DNA from: an uncultured virus (IMG/VR IMGVR_UViG_3300002138_000152) | Taxonomy: Duplodnaviria > Heunggongvirae > Uroviricota > Caudoviricetes | Length of the DNA: 20,000 nt | Virus record (IMG/VR): IMGVR_UViG_3300002138_000152 | Direction: 5' to 3' (one strand) | Part shown: piece after piece, positions 1,137-18,619 of the stretch | Layout of the letters: every line of letters begins with the position of its first letter | How positions within the stretch are numbered: position 1 is the first letter of the stretch | The notes under the pieces: generated by a model | What the model was told of the DNA's origin: nothing | Seen by the model: only the letters and a program-made list of their open reading frames with translations | The model's database searches: none | Program-made: the position numbers and the translations under genes

Positions 1137-2339
1137 TTAAACGCCAATCGTTAGGCGTTCTTGTTCAAAGTAAAATTTCTTTGCAATTTCCGAAATATAT
1201 TTTGCAACATCTTTAAGTTCAAATCCAGCATCTGAAATTACATCAGATTCTTCTTTTACAACATCATTGATAACTGCTTTAAGATAATCACCAAGACGTT
1301 TGCGATCAAGTAATCCACCGTTAATAATATCAAATGTTTCAGTTAGCATTTGCTCAAGTCTCCAAAATGGTGTCAATTTGTCAGCAAGATCTATAAGTGT
1401 GCGAACTTTTTCATCATCAACTGTATTAAGTGTTTTCGGTTTAGAACCACTTGCGTGTTTCTCACCTTTTGATTTGAAAATGTAACGTTCACCACGAAAC
1501 ATTCCAGTAAATACAAGACCCTCACCCACAGTACCATCAAGTCCAAAAGTTTTTGATACTGGACATTCATCTTCAACAGCAATAGTTTTTTCAATAATTA
1601 TATTCTGCATGAGTTCTGGATGTGCCATATCAATAAACATTGTAATGGTTGGATAATCAAGAATGTTATAGATTCTACCTTCATGTTTTCTTACATTTTC
1701 ATAATTTAACCATGTAGCAGATTCTTTTGGATCGTCTTCATTTACAACTTTTACACCGAAAATAAAAAAAGCTTTGTTAGAAATCTGTGATATACCAACA
1801 TTTTTTTGAATCCCTGGACCAACCCATTCACCATACATAGCAATTGAATGAGTTGTAAGATCAATATCATTATTTTTTGCAAGTTGTGTAAGTGATGTAG
1901 TAAACCATTCACGTTCACTATTTGCAAAAAATGCAAATCCTGCATTATCTGAAATACCTATTCTTTTTACTGATGATATAATACGGTTTAAAAAAGTATC
2001 ATCATTTTTTAATTTATCAACACCAAGTCTGATACCATCTTCAATTGTAAATGATCTTTTTGTATCGTTTGTAAATTTTACTTCAAAGATTTCACTTGAT
2101 CCTGGTGTAATAATATTTTTTCGTGCTTGAAACCATAATCCATCATTTTCATTGAAACATACACCAGCATTTGTTCCATGTAATTTTACAGTTCCAGTAA
2201 ATTCAATTACTGGCATCTGAATAGATGGATCGTAAGTTGGATCACCATTTACATCAGGCCCAGTATAAGATGCTCTTGATTTTATTGTGTGAACAATAGA
2301 TCTAAATTGTTCAATTGATGTAAATGCTATATGTTTCAT
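1137..2339 (-). CDS. Rnl2-family ATP-dependent RNA ligase
   Basis: Motif I KLHGTN, GEWVGPGIQK, FFIFGV, GEGLV and FKSK, plus a helical C-terminal domain as in T4 Rnl2-like ligases. Confidence 0.85.
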   Translation of the reverse strand: MKHIAFTSIEQFRSIVHTIKSRASYTGPDVNGDPTYDPSIQMPVIEFTGTVKLHGTNAGVCFNENDGLWFQARKNIITPGSSEIFEVKFTNDTKRSFTIEDGIRLGVDKLKNDDTFLNRIISSVKRIGISDNAGFAFFANSEREWFTTSLTQLAKNNDIDLTTHSIAMYGEWVGPGIQKNVGISQISNKAFFIFGVKVVNEDDPKESATWLNYENVRKHEGRIYNILDYPTITMFIDMAHPELMQNIIIEKTIAVEDECPVSKTFGLDGTVGEGLVFTGMFRGERYIFKSKGEKHASGSKPKTLNTVDDEKVRTLIDLADKLTPFWRLEQMLTETFDIINGGLLDRKRLGDYLKAVINDVVKEESDVISDAGFELKDVAKYISEIAKKFYFEQERLTIGV

Positions 2340-10252: not shown

Positions 10253-11119
10253 ATGAGTAAGAAACAAGAATTAAAAGATGCGTTAGGGCAGCGCATGAAG
10301 GCTTACGAGGAAGAAACTAGAACTTTCCTTGAACCAAAGAAACCAACAATCATGCGATTAGATGGAAAAGCTTTTCATACTTATACCCAACAGTTTAAAA
10401 AACCATTTGATCCAGTACTGATCAATACAATGGATCAAACAGCGATTTATCTTTGTAGTAAAATTCAAGGTGCACAATTTGCTTTTGTTCAAAGTGATGA
10501 AATTACAATTTTTCTTTCTGATGAAATGAGTGATGAAGCACAACTATGGTATGATGGAAATGTTCAAAAAATGACTTCTATATCAGCATCAATGGCTGCG
10601 GCAAAATTTAATCATTTACGTTTTTTAGATACACTTCTTTCTATAACTGGAGTTGATGAAAGAACAATGGGTGCAAGATATAATCATATTGAGCGTGAAG
10701 ATATTTTAGTTCCTATGGCACTTGCTGAATTTGATTCACGTGTATTTCAGGTTCCTGATTATCAAGAAGTTGTAAATAATTTTCTTTGGAGACAAGAGGA
10801 TTGTCGCAAAAATAGCATCTCATCGGTCGCTCAAAACATTTTTTCACCAAAACAATTGGACAAGAAAAACAGTGATGTTAAACTAGTAATGTGTGCTGAA
10901 GCTGGTGATCCATGGGAAGCGTATGATCCTAAATTAAAATGGGGTAGATTTATTCAAAAAGAAACATATATCACGGACATACCATACATGCGTGATGGTG
11001 TTCAACACATTGCTGAGAATGTAACACGAACACGTTGGGTGTCAACAGAATGTCCACTTTTCCGTGAAGATAAAGAATTTATTCTTTCACGTCTTAATTC
11101 AATTAAACAAAAGAAATAA
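10253..11119 (+). CDS. thg1: Thg1-like tRNA(His) guanylyltransferase / 3'-5' RNA polymerase
   Basis: RMKAYE, IMRLDGKAFHTYT, KPFD, QSDEITI, QKM.SISAS, FDSRVF, WRQEDC.KNSIS. Confidence 0.92.
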   Translation: MSKKQELKDALGQRMKAYEEETRTFLEPKKPTIMRLDGKAFHTYTQQFKKPFDPVLINTMDQTAIYLCSKIQGAQFAFVQSDEITIFLSDEMSDEAQLWYDGNVQKMTSISASMAAAKFNHLRFLDTLLSITGVDERTMGARYNHIEREDILVPMALAEFDSRVFQVPDYQEVVNNFLWRQEDCRKNSISSVAQNIFSPKQLDKKNSDVKLVMCAEAGDPWEAYDPKLKWGRFIQKETYITDIPYMRDGVQHIAENVTRTRWVSTECPLFREDKEFILSRLNSIKQKK

Positions 11120-13989: not shown

Positions 13990-14061
13990 ACATTCTATTT
14001 ATTCTTGTGTATAACTTTCAGAATCGGTTACCGGTTCATTAAAAAGAATCATAAGAATAAA

Positions 14062-14232
14062 ATGAGTACAACTGAAATCTACGCAGAATTGTCTAAGCTA
14101 TGGGCTGAATTTGACGCTGCACACAACGGAACCAAAAAACGCAATCGTGCAGATGCTCGTAAAGCATTAGGTGAGATGAAAAAATTAATCACTCCATACC
14201 GTCAAGCATCTGTTGAAGAAACAAAAGCGTAA
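14062..14232 (+). CDS. Hc1-like (histone H1-like) small basic protein
   Basis: 56 aa. G.K.....ARKALGEMKKL...YR..S.E resembles the short Bacteroidota/phage Hc1-family proteins. Confidence 0.65.
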   Translation: MSTTEIYAELSKLWAEFDAAHNGTKKRNRADARKALGEMKKLITPYRQASVEETKA

Positions 14233-14333
14233 AAAAATTAAAAAAAACGCAAAATATTTTTTTATTTGAAAAATGATGCGTATTATTGCATCATAATCAA
14301 AAAGGGAAACAAAATTTACAATATATAAATCAA

Positions 14334-14408
14334 ATGAAGAAATTTACAAACATAGCAACATCTGAGTATCGTAACGATGCTGTCGAACCCGATCAAAACT
14401 TGGGCTGA
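14334..14408 (+). CDS. Putative attenuator leader peptide 1 (MKKFTNIATSEYRNDAVEPDQNLG)
   Basis: 24-codon ORF. Consecutive GAA CCC GAT CAA (E-P-D-Q, 14385-14396) match the downstream tRNA specificities, and the 3' end overlaps the antiterminator strand. Confidence 0.65.
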   Translation: MKKFTNIATSEYRNDAVEPDQNLG

Positions 14409-14479
14409 TATTGTTATGCATTGATTTATCATATTAAAGTATAACTTTGAGGCCCGAATTTAAGATTCGGGCTTTTTTT
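14400..14479 (+). terminator. Attenuator 1: intrinsic terminator with an overlapping antiterminator
   Basis: Terminator AGGCCCGAAT-ttaag-ATTCGGGCTT plus T-tract (14450-14479). Alternative pairings are TTGGGCT (14400-14406) with GGCCCGA (14451-14457) and GTTATGC (14413-14419) with GTATAAC (14439-14445). Confidence 0.75.
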
Positions 14480-14483
14480 ATTT

Positions 14484-14556
14484 CGTGCTGTAGATCAGTT
14501 GGTAGATTGGGGAGTTTGGGACTCTCAGGCCGCAAGTTCGAGTCTTGCCAGTGCGA
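14484..14556 (+). tRNA. tRNA-Pro(TGG)
   Basis: Cloverleaf: CGTGCTG/CAGTGCG acceptor, GGGAG-ttTGGga-CTCTC, GCAAG-TTCGAGT-CTTGC, C1-G72 and A73. No encoded CCA. Confidence 0.85.
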
Positions 14557-14564
14557 CGAAATAA

Positions 14565-14635
14565 CGAGAGTGTGGTGTAATGGTAGCACATGGTGTTTGG
14601 GTCACTAGAGAACGGTTCGAGTCCGGCACTTTCGA
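14565..14635 (+). tRNA. tRNA-Pro(TGG), atypical (8-bp acceptor, short T-stem)
   Basis: CGAGAGTG/CACTTTCG, TGGTG-ttTGGgt-CACTA, CGG-TTCGAGT-CCG. Confidence 0.65.
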
Positions 14636-14644
14636 CAATTGAAA

Positions 14645-14720
14645 CGAGATTTTACAGTAAGGCGGAAAACTGGTAACATAGTGGCTATGTGTAAGGTTGG
14701 TTCGAATCCAACAATTTCGA
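14645..14720 (+). tRNA. tRNA-Pro(TGG)-like RNA with an aberrant anticodon arm
   Basis: CGAGATT/AATTTCG acceptor and perfect T arm GTTGG-TTCGAAT-CCAAC. The anticodon arm ACATAG-TGG-CTATGT lacks U33. Confidence 0.5.
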
Positions 14721-14749
14721 CAAAAAGAAAACGTTCTTTAAATTAAAAT

Positions 14750-14823
14750 GTTCCGTTAGTGAAGTTGGTTAACACGTCTCACTTTCCATGAGAAGATCAT
14801 CGGTTCGAATCCGATACGGAATA
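14750..14823 (+). tRNA. tRNA-Glu(TTC), with unusual C37
   Basis: GTTCCGT/ACGGAAT, TCTCA-ctTTCca-TGAGA, ATCGG-TTCGAAT-CCGAT. Confidence 0.75.
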
Positions 14824-14908
14824 CTACGGTCAAAGTGATGTAGATCAGTCTAACTGATTGAAAGTATAGTACAATACTAGGTTTATTCCCATCATTCCCT
14901 GACCATAA

Positions 14909-14980
14909 CGCCCGTTGGTCAAGTGGTTAAGACGCATCCCTTTCACGGATGAGTCACGAGTTCGATTCTCGTACGGGTGA
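14909..14980 (+). tRNA. tRNA-Glu(TTC)
   Basis: CGCCCGT/ACGGGTG, CATCC-ctTTCac-GGATG, ACGAG-TTCGATT-CTCGT. Confidence 0.88.
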
Positions 14981-14981
14981 C

Positions 14982-15668
14982 ATGAAGCAATGTGAAAATT
15001 GTAATAATAATCACAACGGTGATTATGGAAGTGGTAGATTCTGCTCAAGCAAATGTGCTAGAGGTTTCTCTACCAAAGATAAACGTTCTTTGATAAATGA
15101 AAAGGTGAGTAAAAAATTATCTTTTGTTCCTGTTCTTATTAAAAATTGTGCTCAATGTAATATTGTTTTTGATACAAAAAATGTAAAACAACTTTATTGT
15201 TCAAAATCGTGTGGTGCTAGTGCGACATCAAAAGGTTGGACAAATCATTCTAAAATTGATTGGAGTAGTATACATAGAGAAGCATATAAAAATGGAAACA
15301 ATTATGTTGCTGGTGGTACATGTAAATGGATTGAAATAACTACTAGTAACGGTTTAATTAAAGTTCAAGGTTCATATGAAGTTAGAGTTGTTAAAATTCT
15401 TGAGCAATGGAAAATAAAGGGTAAAATAATTAATTGGCAATACTCACCAACAAGATTTAAATACTATGATGAAAATCATATTGAACGAACATATTTAATA
15501 GATTTTCTTGTTATTGAAAATAATAAAATGTGGTATTTAGAAGTTAAAGGTTATACACAAGCTAAAGATTTATTAAAATGGAAAGCTGTTAACGATCTTA
15601 AACATCATCTTGTTGTTTGGCACCTTGATCAAATTAAAGAAAATGAAAAACACACCTTGGAGGTCTAA
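14982..15668 (+). CDS. Free-standing homing-endonuclease-like protein (Cys zinc-finger repeats plus a TnsA-like PD-(D/E)XK domain)
   Basis: Likely start is ATG 14982, because the track start lies inside tRNA-Glu. CENC...FCSSKCA and CAQC...YCSKSC, then GSYE...YLIDFLV...YLEVKGY...KW. Confidence 0.75.
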   Translation: MKQCENCNNNHNGDYGSGRFCSSKCARGFSTKDKRSLINEKVSKKLSFVPVLIKNCAQCNIVFDTKNVKQLYCSKSCGASATSKGWTNHSKIDWSSIHREAYKNGNNYVAGGTCKWIEITTSNGLIKVQGSYEVRVVKILEQWKIKGKIINWQYSPTRFKYYDENHIERTYLIDFLVIENNKMWYLEVKGYTQAKDLLKWKAVNDLKHHLVVWHLDQIKENEKHTLEV

Positions 15669-15728
15669 TGGTTAGGACATCCGCCTGTCACGCGGAAATT
15701 CAAGCGGGTTCGACTCCCGTTCGGGGTG
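15654..15728 (+). tRNA. tRNA-Asp(GTC)
   Basis: TCCGC-ctGTCac-GCGGA, GCGGG-TTCGACT-CCCGT, G73. The 5' end overlaps the last codons of the endonuclease ORF. Confidence 0.8.
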
Positions 15729-15736
15729 CAATAAAA

Positions 15737-15801
15737 CAAGGGATAGTGTATGGTAACATACATGACTGTCTATGTTGGGTTCGAGTTCAACATGTGGTGC
15801 A
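15737..15801 (+). pseudogene. Degenerate tRNA-Asp(GTC)-like remnant
   Basis: D-arm-like GTGT-atggta-ACAT, loop CTGTCTA and GGTTCGAG T-loop are present, but the 3' anticodon strand and acceptor pairing are lost. Boundaries approximate. Confidence 0.45.
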
Positions 15802-15831
15802 AAAGACAGAAAAGTCTATAAAATGAAATTT

Positions 15832-15904
15832 AGTCTCGGCGTATAATGGCTGGTACATCCGACTGTCTATCGGAGTTTAGAGGGTTCGATTCCCTTCGGG
15901 ACCG
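15832..15904 (+). tRNA. tRNA-Asp(GTC)
   Basis: GTCTCG/CGGGAC acceptor (1-72 mismatch), TCCGA-ctGTCta-TCGGA, GAGGG-TTCGATT-CCCTT, G73. Confidence 0.75.
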
Positions 15905-16028
15905 CAGTAATTGGGTTGTGAATTCACAGGCTGTAACCTGTAATAGTAGCAATGTGTTACATGTGGAATGTGAGTAAAAAGTCTAAGTAGTGTTACAGCG
16001 CAAAATGACTTTCAAAGCAAGAAATATT

Positions 16029-16097
16029 TCGGTTTAGGTGTAGTGGTGCACGGCCTGCGTTGAGCAGGACGGTTCGGTTCGATTCCGACATACTGAT
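16029..16097 (+). tRNA. tRNA-Gln(TTG)-like, atypical (G33)
   Basis: U1-A72 acceptor TCGGTTT/ATACTGA, D arm GTGT-agtggt-GCAC, CCTG-cgTTGag-CAGG, TCGG-TTCGATT-CCGA. Confidence 0.55.
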
Positions 16098-16125
16098 CAA
16101 AAGAATTGATTAAAAATTAAGAAAA

Positions 16126-16221
16126 ATGAAAACAATTGCGGTAAATAATCAGGTAATGCTTATCACCACTCCAACGAGTGTTAGCTATTACTATTATCTA
16201 TACTTATTGAGGAATCGATGA
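16126..16221 (+). CDS. Putative attenuator leader peptide 2, Tyr-rich (MKTIAVNNQVMLITTPTSVSYYYYLYLLRNR)
   Basis: 31-codon ORF with TAT TAC TAT TAT CTA TAC at 16186-16203, directly upstream of a terminator and four tRNA-Tyr genes. Confidence 0.8.
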   Translation: MKTIAVNNQVMLITTPTSVSYYYYLYLLRNR

Positions 16222-16279
16222 GACCGTAATTGTATTGCACAATTTTAAGTCCTGTTGATTCATTCAGCAGGACTTTTTT
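16212..16279 (+). terminator. Attenuator 2: intrinsic terminator with an overlapping antiterminator
   Basis: Terminator AAGTCCTGTTGA-ttcat-TCAGCAGGACTT plus T-tract (16247-16279). Alternative pairing of GAATCGATGAGAC (16212-16224) with GTCCTGTTGATTC (16249-16261) gives 12/13 pairs including G-U and encloses AATTGT/ACAATT. Confidence 0.8.
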
Positions 16280-16284
16280 ATTAT

Positions 16285-16367
16285 CCGGACGTATGCAAGA
16301 GGCTAAAGCAGAATGACTGTAAATCATTTCTCTTCGGAGTTCGTAGGTTCGAATCCTACCGGCCGGA
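16285..16367 (+). tRNA. tRNA-Tyr(GTA), long variable arm, C1-G72
   Basis: AATGA-ctGTAaa-TCATT, variable arm CTC-TTCG-GAG, GTAGG-TTCGAAT-CCTAC, A73. Confidence 0.88.
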
Positions 16368-16379
16368 CAAAACATACAT

Positions 16380-16460
16380 GCCAGTATGTGCGAGTGGTTA
16401 ATGCAGCCGATCTGTAAAATCGGTCCTTTGGGTTCGTAGGTTCAAATCCTACTGCTGGCA
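16380..16460 (+). tRNA. tRNA-Tyr(GTA)
   Basis: GCCAGTA/TGCTGGC, CCGAT-ctGTAaa-ATCGG, GTAGG-TTCAAAT-CCTAC, A73. Confidence 0.9.
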
Positions 16461-16470
16461 CAATTTTAAT

Positions 16471-16540
16471 GGAAGAGAACGGGCGGAAGCCAGGTCTGTA
16501 AAACCTTTGCTAGTGAGTTCGATACCCACCTTTTCCACCA
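16471..16540 (+). tRNA. tRNA-Tyr(GTA)-like, reduced D and variable arms, encoded CCA
   Basis: GGAAGAG/CTTTTCC-A-CCA, AGGT-ctGTAaa-ACCT, imperfect T arm. Confidence 0.6.
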
Positions 16541-16547
16541 ATAACAT

Positions 16548-16661
16548 AGGGGAGTTAAAATGTTGGATTCAATGTGTTCTGTTTTAAGAACACTCACAGC
16601 AAAACTCAAATAACACAAACTGTAAATTTGTATAACGTAGGTTCGATTCCTACCTTCCCTA
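16548..16661 (+). tRNA. tRNA-Tyr(GTA)-like RNA with a greatly expanded D-arm region
   Basis: AGGGGAG/CTTCCCT, ACAAA-ctGTAaa-TTTGT, GTAGG-TTCGATT-CCTAC; about 60 nt between the acceptor and anticodon arms. Confidence 0.55.
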
Positions 16662-16702
16662 CTTTTCTGTAGTTCTTTATTTGTGTGTATATTTGATGTA
16701 TT

Positions 16703-17284
16703 ATGAGAAAAGATTCGCATTATAGACACAAGTATCATCATCAACAACAATTAATGGCTAGAAAACAATCTACAGTAATTGATTTTTCTGATACAAATTG
16801 CCTTATTGACAATATGGTAACAATGATAAATCCTACTGAACAGCTTACAGAACATACTATGGTGGAAAAAACCGTTTTTAATGATTGTGAAATTGATGAT
16901 ATTATTAATTCAAAAAAATCAAGTACAGCAATTAAAATACTTGCTACAGGATATAATAAACAAGAGAATCAACCAAGTATTAATTTGAGAAAAAAGAAAA
17001 AACTTGATAACTTTGAATTACGTAAAGATATTGTACATAATGAAAAAAATCTTACTTTAGAGTACAATATTTATTTACGAGATATAAAAATTGGTGTTAT
17101 TAAACCATATTTTATATCTGATAAAGAACATGTTTATACTAGTGATGTGCGAGTATTTTTTATATCTAAATTTCCATCTGTTATTACTAATATAAGTGAT
17201 TCAAATATCGATATGTTGTTAAAACGTCTTAAAACTAATATTGAAATGATACGTGATTTTATTCGTTTATTTGAATCTGATTAA
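16703..17284 (+). CDS. Hypothetical protein (start may be ATG 16754)
   Basis: Long ORF downstream of a TATATTTG box; no motif recognised. Confidence 0.6.
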   Translation: MRKDSHYRHKYHHQQQLMARKQSTVIDFSDTNCLIDNMVTMINPTEQLTEHTMVEKTVFNDCEIDDIINSKKSSTAIKILATGYNKQENQPSINLRKKKKLDNFELRKDIVHNEKNLTLEYNIYLRDIKIGVIKPYFISDKEHVYTSDVRVFFISKFPSVITNISDSNIDMLLKRLKTNIEMIRDFIRLFESD

Positions 17285-18004: not shown

Positions 18005-18619
18005 ATGTTATTAATAGGAGACGTTCACGGTAAAGTCGATCAGTATTTTAAATTGATTGAAAACTATAATGGTAAATCTGTTCAAGTCGGTGATTTTGGA
18101 TTTAAGAAACACCATGATAAATTAATAGATAATCTGTCTATCAATAAAGACGATCACAAAATTTTATTTGGTAATCATGATTATTATCCATATGTTAATG
18201 CTCAACATAGTATTGGTGATTATGGAATGCATGAAGGTATGTTTTGTGTTCGTGGCGCAAAATCAATTGATCAACACAGACGTACTGAAGGTCTTGATTG
18301 GTTTCCTGAAGAAGAACTCACTTATCGTCAATTTGGTGAAATGATTGATATGTATGAACAATTAAAACCTGATATTGTTGTATCACATACTTGCCCAACA
18401 AGTGTAGCTCAATCTCTTTACGGTTATTATAATACAGGTAAAGCTGCTGACCGTTCGATTACATCTGATTCATTAGATGTAATGTTTGAAATACATAAAC
18501 CTAAAATATGGGTATTTGGACACCATCATAAGAGTAAAGATATTACAATAATGGACACACGTTTTATATGTCTTGAAGAATTAGAAACTGTTGAACTTAA
18601 AACACTTTTAAATGAATAA
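18005..18619 (+). CDS. Calcineurin-like metallophosphoesterase
   Basis: GDVHG, GDFG, GNHD, SH, FGHHH. Confidence 0.9.
   Translation: MLLIGDVHGKVDQYFKLIENYNGKSVQVGDFGFKKHHDKLIDNLSINKDDHKILFGNHDYYPYVNAQHSIGDYGMHEGMFCVRGAKSIDQHRRTEGLDWFPEEELTYRQFGEMIDMYEQLKPDIVVSHTCPTSVAQSLYGYYNTGKAADRSITSDSLDVMFEIHKPKIWVFGHHHKSKDITIMDTRFICLEELETVELKTLLNE

Follow-up and report, generated by a model that had tools for sequence, protein, structure and literature searches.

A candidate tyrosine-rich leader ahead of tRNA-Tyr genes

We analysed a window of 20,000 nucleotides from an uncultured virus of the Caudoviricetes (IMG/VR record IMGVR_UViG_3300002138_000152), in which positions 16126-16661 display a short tyrosine-rich open reading frame (ORF), an intrinsic terminator and a block of tRNA-Tyr genes, one closely following the other. 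A preliminary description, made from the letters alone, had read this arrangement as a leader-peptide attenuator in which tyrosine codons gate the tRNA-Tyr block. Hereafter, we refer to it as unit B, and to a second arrangement of this kind, located upstream in the same window, as unit A. Features of the window are on the forward strand unless stated otherwise.

The candidate leader of unit B (leader B, 16126-16221) is a short ORF of 31 codons plus a TGA stop, which opens with a putative ATG start, reads MKTIAVNNQVMLITTPTSVSYYYYLYLLRNR and ends in YYYYLYLLRNR. Its proposed sensor codons, the YYYYLY already pointed out from the letters, occupy 16186-16203 (TAT TAC TAT TAT CTA TAC), and these five tyrosines in six codons stand ahead of a Tyr-only block. 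The DNA of this phage gave 276 small ATG ORFs, of which leader B itself is the single one with five tyrosines in six codons, and none of 9611 small ATG ORFs from 79 other phage loci has them. Leader B is also the sole ATG ORF of at least 8 codons with a stop inside -75 to +12 nt of the terminator start. The context of its start codon is A-rich and lacks a Shine-Dalgarno sequence, which matches most of the 25 listed genes of the window. The ORF begins 27 nt after a tRNA-Gln(UUG)-like element (G33; 16029-16098), which is the last member of the preceding tRNA block, was called by ARAGORN at the 90% threshold only and had no Rfam match at E<=1. Since so little space separates the two, unit B appears to lack a promoter of its own, and transcription would therefore come from the upstream tRNA block.

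The leader is followed by a predicted intrinsic terminator (16247-16279), in which a 12-bp hairpin with five G-C pairs (16247-16275; -18.2 kcal/mol) runs into six T residues (16274-16279), 5 nt ahead of the first tRNA-Tyr. The whole window displays four strong sites that combine a hairpin with a T run, terminator B among them. Two of these four are located 4-5 nt before tRNA blocks and behind mini-ORFs of 24 and 31 codons, and the other two behind ordinary genes. A gap of 4-5 nt between T run and tRNA leaves no room for a promoter.

The region around the stop codon offers an alternative pairing. The strand 16211-16225, which spans the stop codon (16219-16221), can pair with 16248-16262 through 12 pairs, three of them G.U, with one internal mismatch (-12.3 kcal/mol), in agreement with the 12 of 13 positions first proposed for the stop region and the 5′ arm of the terminator. 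The share of dinucleotide shuffles reaching this energy was 0.086 and 0.03 with 2000 shuffles, and 0.078 with 1000 shuffles. This putative antiterminator would enclose a spacer hairpin (AAUUGU-AUUGC-ACAAUU, 16228-16244), and a spacer hairpin is found at the equivalent place in unit A and in one of the homologous loci described below (L088).

Four elements with GTA in an anticodon or anticodon-like loop follow the terminator, as had been noticed at the outset: two called tRNA-Tyr genes and two tRNA-like elements. The tRNA-Tyr(GTA) genes at 16285-16368, the first that unit B would regulate, and 16380-16461 were called by ARAGORN and scored 49.0 and 53.9 bits against Rfam, both above the gathering score. 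The first of them is homologous to the first tRNA-Tyr of the related loci in record G003 and at L088. In element 3 (~16470-16541; fold z-score -0.6), an acceptor-like stem goes together with a CUGUAAA loop, and the CCA is encoded. Element 4 (~16549-16660; z-score -3.0) combines an acceptor stem and a T arm with a GTA loop, carries a hairpin of ~45 nt in the position of the D arm, and has a partial Rfam match of 20.3 bits at 16611-16653. ARAGORN left both elements uncalled even at 70% thresholds. They are 95-97% conserved in contigs from other sequencing runs (runs X1 and X5 for element 3).

Conservation of the design in homologous tyrosine loci

Near-identical relatives of the locus (97-99%) were found in two sequencing runs as assembled contigs, in which RNA ends are not visible. 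In these relatives the ORF, Tyr run, stop, antiterminator and terminator are unchanged, and the only changes in 16126-16284 are a synonymous C>T at 16164 and TT>CA at 16181-16182 (Val19Ala). One of them runs on into a diverged tRNA-Tyr.

More distant homologues were obtained through two scans. The neutral scan was anchored solely on the D arm and T loop of tRNA-Tyr and returned 10 loci, one of which is syntenic with the window. This locus (L109) belongs to G003, a record of 391 kb, and has the order Pro, Glu, Asp, Asp, then Tyr, Tyr. The Thg1-like protein of G003 shares 61% identity with that of the window over 114 aa. The leader of its Tyr unit reads MKTTVNTYYWYYYKLFK up to the stop, and the strand AAUGAUAAGG, which lies over the stop, is complementary to the 5′ arm of a terminator (-16.4 kcal/mol) that is unrelated in sequence to that of the window. 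The tRNA-Tyr starts 10 nt later.

The second scan looked for YYYY 95-125 nt ahead of a tRNA-Tyr anticodon. It gave 2 matches in IMG/VR, as compared to 0 for a control with the run reversed, both numbers being small, and 13 matches in metagenomes, mostly AT-rich chance cases; for 10 of these 15 loci, no ATG ORF contained the run. Among the finds was L088, with a homologous tRNA-Tyr, a leader that reads MMRLMSYYYYVFDDHWN and an 11-bp terminator followed by six T. As compared to the window, the L088 terminator hairpin has lost one base pair on both sides and shows a U.G to G.U flip. Its antiterminator strand, GAUCACUGGA, lies just ahead of the stop and is predicted to pair more strongly (-16.8 kcal/mol) than the terminator (-15.1 kcal/mol), and folding of the whole region gives the antiterminator as the structure of lowest energy.

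Taken side by side, the three Tyr units (window, G003 and L088, in this order) keep the Tyr run, the spacing from stop to terminator (25, 21 and 22 nt) and an anti-strand at the stop (positions -8 to +6, -3 to +19 and -13 to -2 relative to it). Both helices differ in sequence among the three units, with the geometry preserved. An MK(T) start is found in two of the three leaders, and an N-terminus of the form MKT..V.N is common to leader B and the G003 Tyr leader. The leaders of G003 and L088 have 17 codons. In both homologous loci the tRNA-Tyr follows 9-15 nt behind the terminator. The energies of the mutually exclusive antiterminators were -12.3 kcal/mol in the window (p 0.078), -13.9 kcal/mol in G003 (p 0.001) and -16.8 kcal/mol in L088 (p 0.004). 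The search for Tyr runs and antiterminator pairs in related phages, proposed along with the first description, thus recovered both in G003, found through a neutral anchor, and in L088, found through an anchor biased towards Tyr runs. What might have spoken against an attenuator, namely homologues devoid of the Tyr run or a promoter downstream of the hairpin, was not encountered: the run is kept, and no promoter fits in the 5 nt between T run and gene.

Codon-matched leaders across the tRNA blocks of G003

The gene content of G003 allowed us to look beyond tyrosine. This record has 37 tRNA matches and seven terminator-to-tRNA junctions, identified by a script that looked for a hairpin plus T run only and was blind to leaders. 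Candidate leaders were then defined as ATG ORFs of at least 8 codons with a stop between -75 and +12 nt from the terminator start. At six of the seven junctions we found an ATG mini-ORF of 17-28 codons ending 14-26 nt before the terminator. The leader MKTSTLILTLTIICITMLCNCSMV precedes the block Leu, Leu, Leu, Leu, Ile, Thr, Thr, Cys, Ile, Ile, Met; MKNFNNILVVGQQGAAAVWKSHGPDNLC precedes Val, Ala, Gly, Gly; MKILITYSQWQQQQYLKILSDTLLN precedes Gln, Gln; MKKFNKHNNHNFWFNRSGSLNHFVY precedes Phe, Trp, Lys, His; MKNVTVNTSSRSASSRRRSKFLLPGLIS precedes Ser, Arg, Arg, Arg; and the Tyr leader given above precedes Tyr, Tyr. The start of the Gln leader was picked by eye after the preceding tRNA, and its Q run is in frame with any start. 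The Gln unit comes next after the Val/Ala/Gly block, a serial design like that of the window. At the seventh junction (Pro/Glu/Asp) no mini-leader was found; it is preceded by a Thg1-like ORF of 146 aa that abuts tRNA-Pro. One further sub-block of G003, led by a promoter, has neither leader nor terminator.

Each of the six G003 leaders is, of the six, the richest in the amino acids of its own block, and none of the other 720 possible permutations does as well as the true pairing. When the two units of the window were swapped in for the G003 Tyr unit, the true pairing was again the single best, here of 5040 permutations. All eight leaders, two from the window and six from G003, begin with ATGAA. 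In addition, the terminator 5′ arm had its best partner over the stop or within the final 25 nt of the leader ORF in nine of nine units. The shuffle p values of these nine antiterminators were 0.045, 0.151, 0.248, 0.032, 0.004, 0.001, 0.036, 0.078 and 0.004, which combine by Fisher's method to 1.3e-7; the five non-Tyr units of G003, which are independent of the original finding, combine to 6.6e-4.

Some of the G003 leaders share an upstream signal. The 22-nt motif AAAAAWTATTCWTATAATTGTA occurs perfectly at only three sites in the 391 kb, namely 27138-27159 (reverse strand), 45904-45925 (reverse strand) and 302444-302465 (forward strand), each 43-49 nt before the ATG of a tRNA-block leader. From this placement, the motif seems to represent a class of promoter reserved for tRNA units.

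The second unit of the window

Unit A lies upstream of the first tRNA block of the window. A diverged copy of the G003 motif, GAAAAATGATGCGTATTATTGCAT, is found at 14268-14291, at a similar distance from the leader as in G003, and would act as its promoter. Leader A (14334-14408) has 24 codons plus TGA and reads MKKFTNIATSEYRNDAVEPDQNLG, including the stretch DAVEPDQ, of which E-P-D(-Q) at 14385-14396 are the putative sensor codons. Of the 9611 null ORFs, 46 have P, E and D side by side in some order, and 4 have a permutation of P, E, D and Q; leader A is the richest in P/E/D among seven leaders. Its candidate antiterminator strand, CUUGGGCUG (14399-14407), overlaps the stop (14406-14408) and pairs with the terminator 5′ arm at -11.2 kcal/mol (p 0.036). 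In the predicted terminator (14449-14479), a 12-bp hairpin (14449-14475) runs into seven T residues (14473-14479), 4 nt before tRNA-Pro at 14484.

Block A (14484-15905) comprises two genes each of tRNA-Pro (14484-14557 and 14565-14636), tRNA-Glu (14750-14824 and 14909-14981) and tRNA-Asp (15654-15729 and 15832-15905). Its sub-threshold members are an Ala(GGC)-like element (14645-14720), an element with an Asp-like loop (~15731-15806) and the Gln(UUG)-like element at 16029-16098 mentioned above. Over 14484-16461, the Pro, Glu, Asp and Tyr tRNAs are each doubled with the same anticodon and clearly different sequence; the same doubling was observed in G003 for Leu(taa), Thr(tgt), Ile(gat), Gln(ttg) and Tyr. 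Including the two behind the tRNA-Tyr genes, the window has five sub-threshold tRNA-like elements: 14645-14720 (GGC), 15731-15806 (GTC), 16029-16098 (TTG, G33), 16470-16541 (GTA) and 16549-16660 (GTA). Between tRNA-Glu and tRNA-Asp lies an ORF (14982-15668) with zinc-finger-like Cys pairs and weak matches to TnsA/endonucleases, which overlaps the tRNA-Asp by 15 nt and is probably a homing-type endonuclease within the tRNA array.

Switch geometry and proposed mechanism

A ribosome at a stop codon protects ~15 nt upstream and ~12 nt downstream of its A site. A footprint of this size would cover the anti-strand in the three Tyr units. To represent a stall, we placed the final codon of the run in the A site and folded the nascent RNA, which was free from 11 nt downstream and still lacked the 3′ arm of the terminator. 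The antiterminator, enclosing the small spacer hairpin, was the minimum-energy fold in four of four units (window unit B, the G003 Tyr unit, L088 and window unit A), with energies of -14.4, -13.6, -20.7 and -22.0 kcal/mol, respectively. In leader B, this corresponds to a ribosome halted on the Tyr run at Y24, and the fold is the one expected from the preliminary description. Once the 3′ arm is made, the terminator conformers reach -22.0, -18.8, -22.3 and -24.4 kcal/mol in the same order, making them 1.6-7.6 kcal/mol more stable. In this model, then, a ribosome at the stop would cover the anti-strand and a ribosome on the sensor codons would leave it free.

Based on these findings, we consider it likely that 16126-16284 is a ribosome-mediated transcription attenuator of the trp/his/phe type that controls phage tRNA-Tyr genes. 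The homologous loci and the codon matching in G003 lend support to the core of the preliminary description, and suggest that this phage probably makes tRNA-Tyr only when Tyr codons are read slowly. Transcription would enter unit B from the upstream tRNA block, and the polymerases that have passed gate A and block A would then meet gate B. A ribosome would load on the A-rich start without a Shine-Dalgarno sequence and translate the 31 codons of leader B. When Tyr codons are read fast, this ribosome would reach the TGA and cover 16211-16225, the hairpin at 16247-16275 would form and RNA polymerase would halt at the T6 run, 5 nt ahead of tRNA-Tyr. When the decoding of TAT and TAC is slow, the ribosome would stall on YYYYLY, leaving 16211-16225 free to pair with the terminator 5′ arm around the spacer hairpin. 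The terminator would thus be blocked, and the polymerase would read into the two tRNA-Tyr genes and the two tRNA-like elements. The new tRNA-Tyr would in turn relieve the stall, closing a negative feedback loop.

Several observations weigh against this reading. Our first-stage scan covered ~250,000 windows, so one chance codon run is to be expected somewhere, and the case is carried by the comparative data and not by the run alone. Within these data, the Tyr run of L088 is not independent evidence since the scan demanded it; its ORF, terminator and antiterminator are. The neutral anchor gave nine loci without a leader out of ten, with the tRNA-Tyr inside arrays or behind protein genes. In 79 loci of other large phages, chosen around phosphoesterase homologues, none of 133 tRNAs had a strict hairpin plus T run within 30 nt upstream, which indicates that the design is restricted to a lineage, although the set is of little value for judging how general the design is; a loose scan of the same loci flagged 4 tRNAs, one of them in locus L037. 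The antiterminator of unit B is weak, with three G.U pairs and one mismatch, is not significant on its own (p 0.03-0.09) and gives a conformer 7.6 kcal/mol less stable than the terminator conformer. Among the near-identical relatives, the divergence of the leader (3/159 nt) did not differ significantly from that of the upstream region (10/222 nt; p 0.25). As for unit A, the GTCGAACCCGATC of its leader is the reverse complement of a T-arm-like motif and tends by itself to read EP, and the unit has no homologue for comparison since the Pro/Glu/Asp block of G003 lacks a mini-leader. Furthermore, a copy of TAnnTTTG, a promoter motif of the Bacteroidota type, is found at 14442, directly before hairpin A; this motif is not enriched in the window (27 observed, 29.8 expected).

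Alternative explanations

One alternative is a site without regulation. The mini-ORF might encode a small protein or be untranslated, the hairpin might be a somewhat leaky ordinary terminator that closes the upstream unit, with tRNA-Tyr made by constitutive read-through, and the Tyr run might be an AT-rich coincidence, TAT and TAC being cheap codons at 31% GC. Consistent with this, locus L037 has a hairpin 7 nt before tRNA-Tyr with no leader, where the hairpin ends a gene of 291 aa, and the window antiterminator taken alone is not significant. We nonetheless regard this explanation as very unlikely, given that the Tyr run is absent from all 9611 null ORFs, that six of six G003 leaders match their own blocks, and that two homologues retain run, ORF, spacing and an anti-strand overlapping the stop while the other leader residues and both helices differ. 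A stable non-coding RNA at 16132-16233, with its own terminator and an incidental ORF, would have a parallel in the two small stable RNAs of the T4 tRNA cluster. The leader RNA indeed has a very stable closed fold (-32.1 kcal/mol for 115 nt; z -6.2 including the terminator), with an 11-bp closing stem that joins 16132-16142 to 16223-16233, and the three nucleotides substituted in the near-identical relatives fall at unpaired positions of it. This fold, which would suit a small RNA as well as a leader and so also counts against an attenuator, is absent from the 17-codon homologous leaders, which nevertheless keep ORF, Tyr run and switch, and the region matches no Rfam family of this kind at E<=1; a small RNA is thus highly improbable. 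Even less credit can be given to a translation-independent sensor similar to a T-box, in which the run of Tyr codons would bind the anticodon of tRNA-Tyr and stabilise the antiterminator. In favour of this, UAU and UAC repeats would be able to base-pair with a GUA anticodon, and the region offers both a terminator and an antiterminator. Every unit, however, has a frame from ATG to stop, with an MK start that is largely conserved, and an anti-strand placed where a terminating ribosome would mask it, the multi-amino-acid leaders of G003 fit decoding rather than a single specifier, and neither a T-box nor another riboswitch family was matched at E<=1. We therefore rejected these three explanations, on the grounds of the closed fold that is not kept, the missing Rfam match, and the 0/9611 run together with the codon-matched leaders.

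A different kind of alternative keeps the attenuator and changes its trigger. Slow reading of Tyr codons, with ribosomes stalled on the run, might be caused by host nucleases of the anticodon or variable loop that destroy tRNA-Tyr, such as the PtuAB of retron Eco7/Ec78 or Septu, and the block would then provide replacement tRNA-Tyr along with elements 3 and 4 as resistant or decoy forms. The block holds four elements with a GTA loop, of which the two non-canonical ones are 95-97% conserved in relatives, and tRNA-Tyr-cleaving defences countered by phage tRNA-Tyr have been published (PMC11555353, PMC13096335). The phage also encodes enzymes that might serve in tRNA repair (an RNA ligase, a Thg1-like enzyme and a phosphoesterase), and the endonuclease-like ORF lies inside the tRNA array. 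On the other hand, G003 would gate Leu/Ile/Thr/Cys/Met, Val/Ala/Gly, Gln, Phe/Trp/Lys/His and Ser/Arg blocks likewise, and the gating of so many unrelated tRNA sets favours a general supply driven by demand over a Tyr-specific defence sensor. A trigger of this type is accordingly unlikely in our assessment. We would assign a similarly small chance to a broader version, in which attenuators throughout the phage would together sense, at the resolution of codons, any damage to host decoding, and the Tyr unit is the alarm for defences of the PtuAB or Septu type, inducing replacement tRNA-Tyr and two non-canonical GTA-loop RNAs as decoys or as substitutes that resist the nuclease. Owing to the serial layout, such a network would respond hierarchically, as leader A, which also holds one Tyr codon, has to be passed before unit B.

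Relation to known systems

The attenuator that we propose for the tRNA-Tyr genes closely follows the leader attenuators of enterobacteria (trpL, hisL, pheL, leuL, thrL, ilvL and pheM). Common to both are a short leader with clustered cognate codons, an intrinsic terminator and an antiterminator that uses the 5′ arm of the terminator, together with a strand that is masked by a ribosome at the stop codon and freed by a stalled one. The multivalent thr and ilv leaders parallel the multi-amino-acid leaders of G003 and of unit A, and the trp attenuator resembles the phage units in having a terminator conformer more stable than the nascent antiterminator. The differences concern what is controlled and how the units are laid out. 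Enterobacterial attenuators control amino-acid operons and pheST, whereas behind the phage units we find tRNA genes (tRNA-Tyr and tRNA-like elements in unit B) and no biosynthetic or synthetase genes. The units are also borne by a phage, lack Shine-Dalgarno sequences and are arranged serially (unit A, tRNA block, unit B, tRNA block), with unit B devoid of a promoter.

T-box riboswitches are alike in sensing the supply of a specific charged tRNA and in choosing between terminator and antiterminator. They differ in that they bind the tRNA directly without a ribosome, whereas the phage unit has an ORF and no T-box match. A cmscan of 14000-17000 against Rfam at E<=1 returned only tRNA and chance-level matches, and no leader, T-box or riboswitch family (e.g., His_leader, Trp_leader or Thr_leader).

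Phage tRNA-Tyr has been associated with counter-defence, by T5 tRNA-Tyr against the PtuAB of retron Eco7/Ec78 and in the case of Septu and the tRNA-Tyr of T6 (PMC11555353, PMC13096335). These systems are similar to our locus in the replacement supply of phage tRNA-Tyr, the several tRNA-Tyr copies and a nearby gene resembling a homing endonuclease. Their abstracts describe no leader-peptide regulation of tRNA genes, and our window has no defence system in view. Among titles and abstracts returned by a full-text search of the literature, we found no description of leader-peptide attenuation of tRNA genes. The proposed mechanism is a classical one; what is new is that it would act on tRNA genes, that a phage carries it and that its units are laid out in series, block by block, with matching codons.

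These findings have implications for the question of why large phages carry tRNA genes, which is old and still open, the regulation of such genes being almost unstudied. If the proposed mechanism is true, the phage gauges host decoding codon by codon and tops up only those tRNAs that are scarce, turning the logic of trp and his attenuation onto the translation machinery itself. Such a model connects the tRNAs of phages with mismatched codon usage, with the shut-off of the host and with defences that target tRNAs. Moreover, the leader peptides provide a simple sequence signature by which units of this type could be found in metagenomes.

The phage and other tRNA-Tyr loci

The window has a GC content of 31% and encodes an RNA ligase, a Thg1-like enzyme, TerD/TelA, a UvsX-like recombinase, a sigma factor, NADAR, a metallophosphoesterase and an NAD synthase, a gene content that points to a large phage. 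We infer a source genome of several hundred kb. The sole near-identical record is an IMG/VR contig of 33 kb, which stops at 16592 and has a CheckV completeness of 8%. Mostly without a Shine-Dalgarno sequence and with an A-rich run instead, the 25 listed gene starts of the window would be compatible with a host of the Bacteroidota type. The sequencing runs that contain parts of the window are mostly freshwater metagenomes.

Searches for relatives at the level of single sequences gave little. IMG/VR queried with the Thg1-like protein, ORF193 and the NAD synthase returned either zero matches or just the identical 33-kb contig, a 25-mer of tRNA-Tyr had no match in IMG/VR, and a 22-mer of the terminator had none in the JGI metagenomes. 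Through blastn and tblastn against isolate phages we obtained only tRNA-sized matches or Thg1 homologues below 40% identity, and ORF193 is an orphan among 5.8 billion proteins. For the phosphoesterase, the nearest relative (79% identity) is present in Logan only. Around the tRNA region of the window, a possible tRNA-repair set is formed by the RNA ligase (1137-2339, reverse strand), the Thg1-like 3′-5′ polymerase (10253-11119, forward strand) and the metallophosphoesterase (18005-18619, forward strand).

Two further loci displayed mini-ORFs next to tRNA-Tyr. On the reverse strand of L093 (JAEEGL016033622.1), a find biased towards Tyr runs, a mini-ORF for MYYYYDYYYSG, in which 7 of the 11 residues are Tyr, precedes a tRNA-Tyr, and an 8-bp hairpin that lacks a T run lies between the two. 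Meanwhile, an unrelated phage of 332 kb (L086, G002:C1:139000-158000) has three mini-ORFs with a strong AAGGAGA Shine-Dalgarno sequence and no terminator, whose stops lie 9-21 nt inside the next tRNA gene: MEGEYYYYYRNMRR (149901-149963 in G002) runs into tRNA-Tyr, of which two copies follow, MKRFSTGKESDFTKPRQLNR (150067-150111) into tRNA-Phe and MKRKRKVRKQTYTCL (153705-153752) into tRNA-Lys. These mini-ORFs may represent a codon-matched control that dispenses with a terminator, for example through a ribosome that disturbs the folding or processing of the tRNA.

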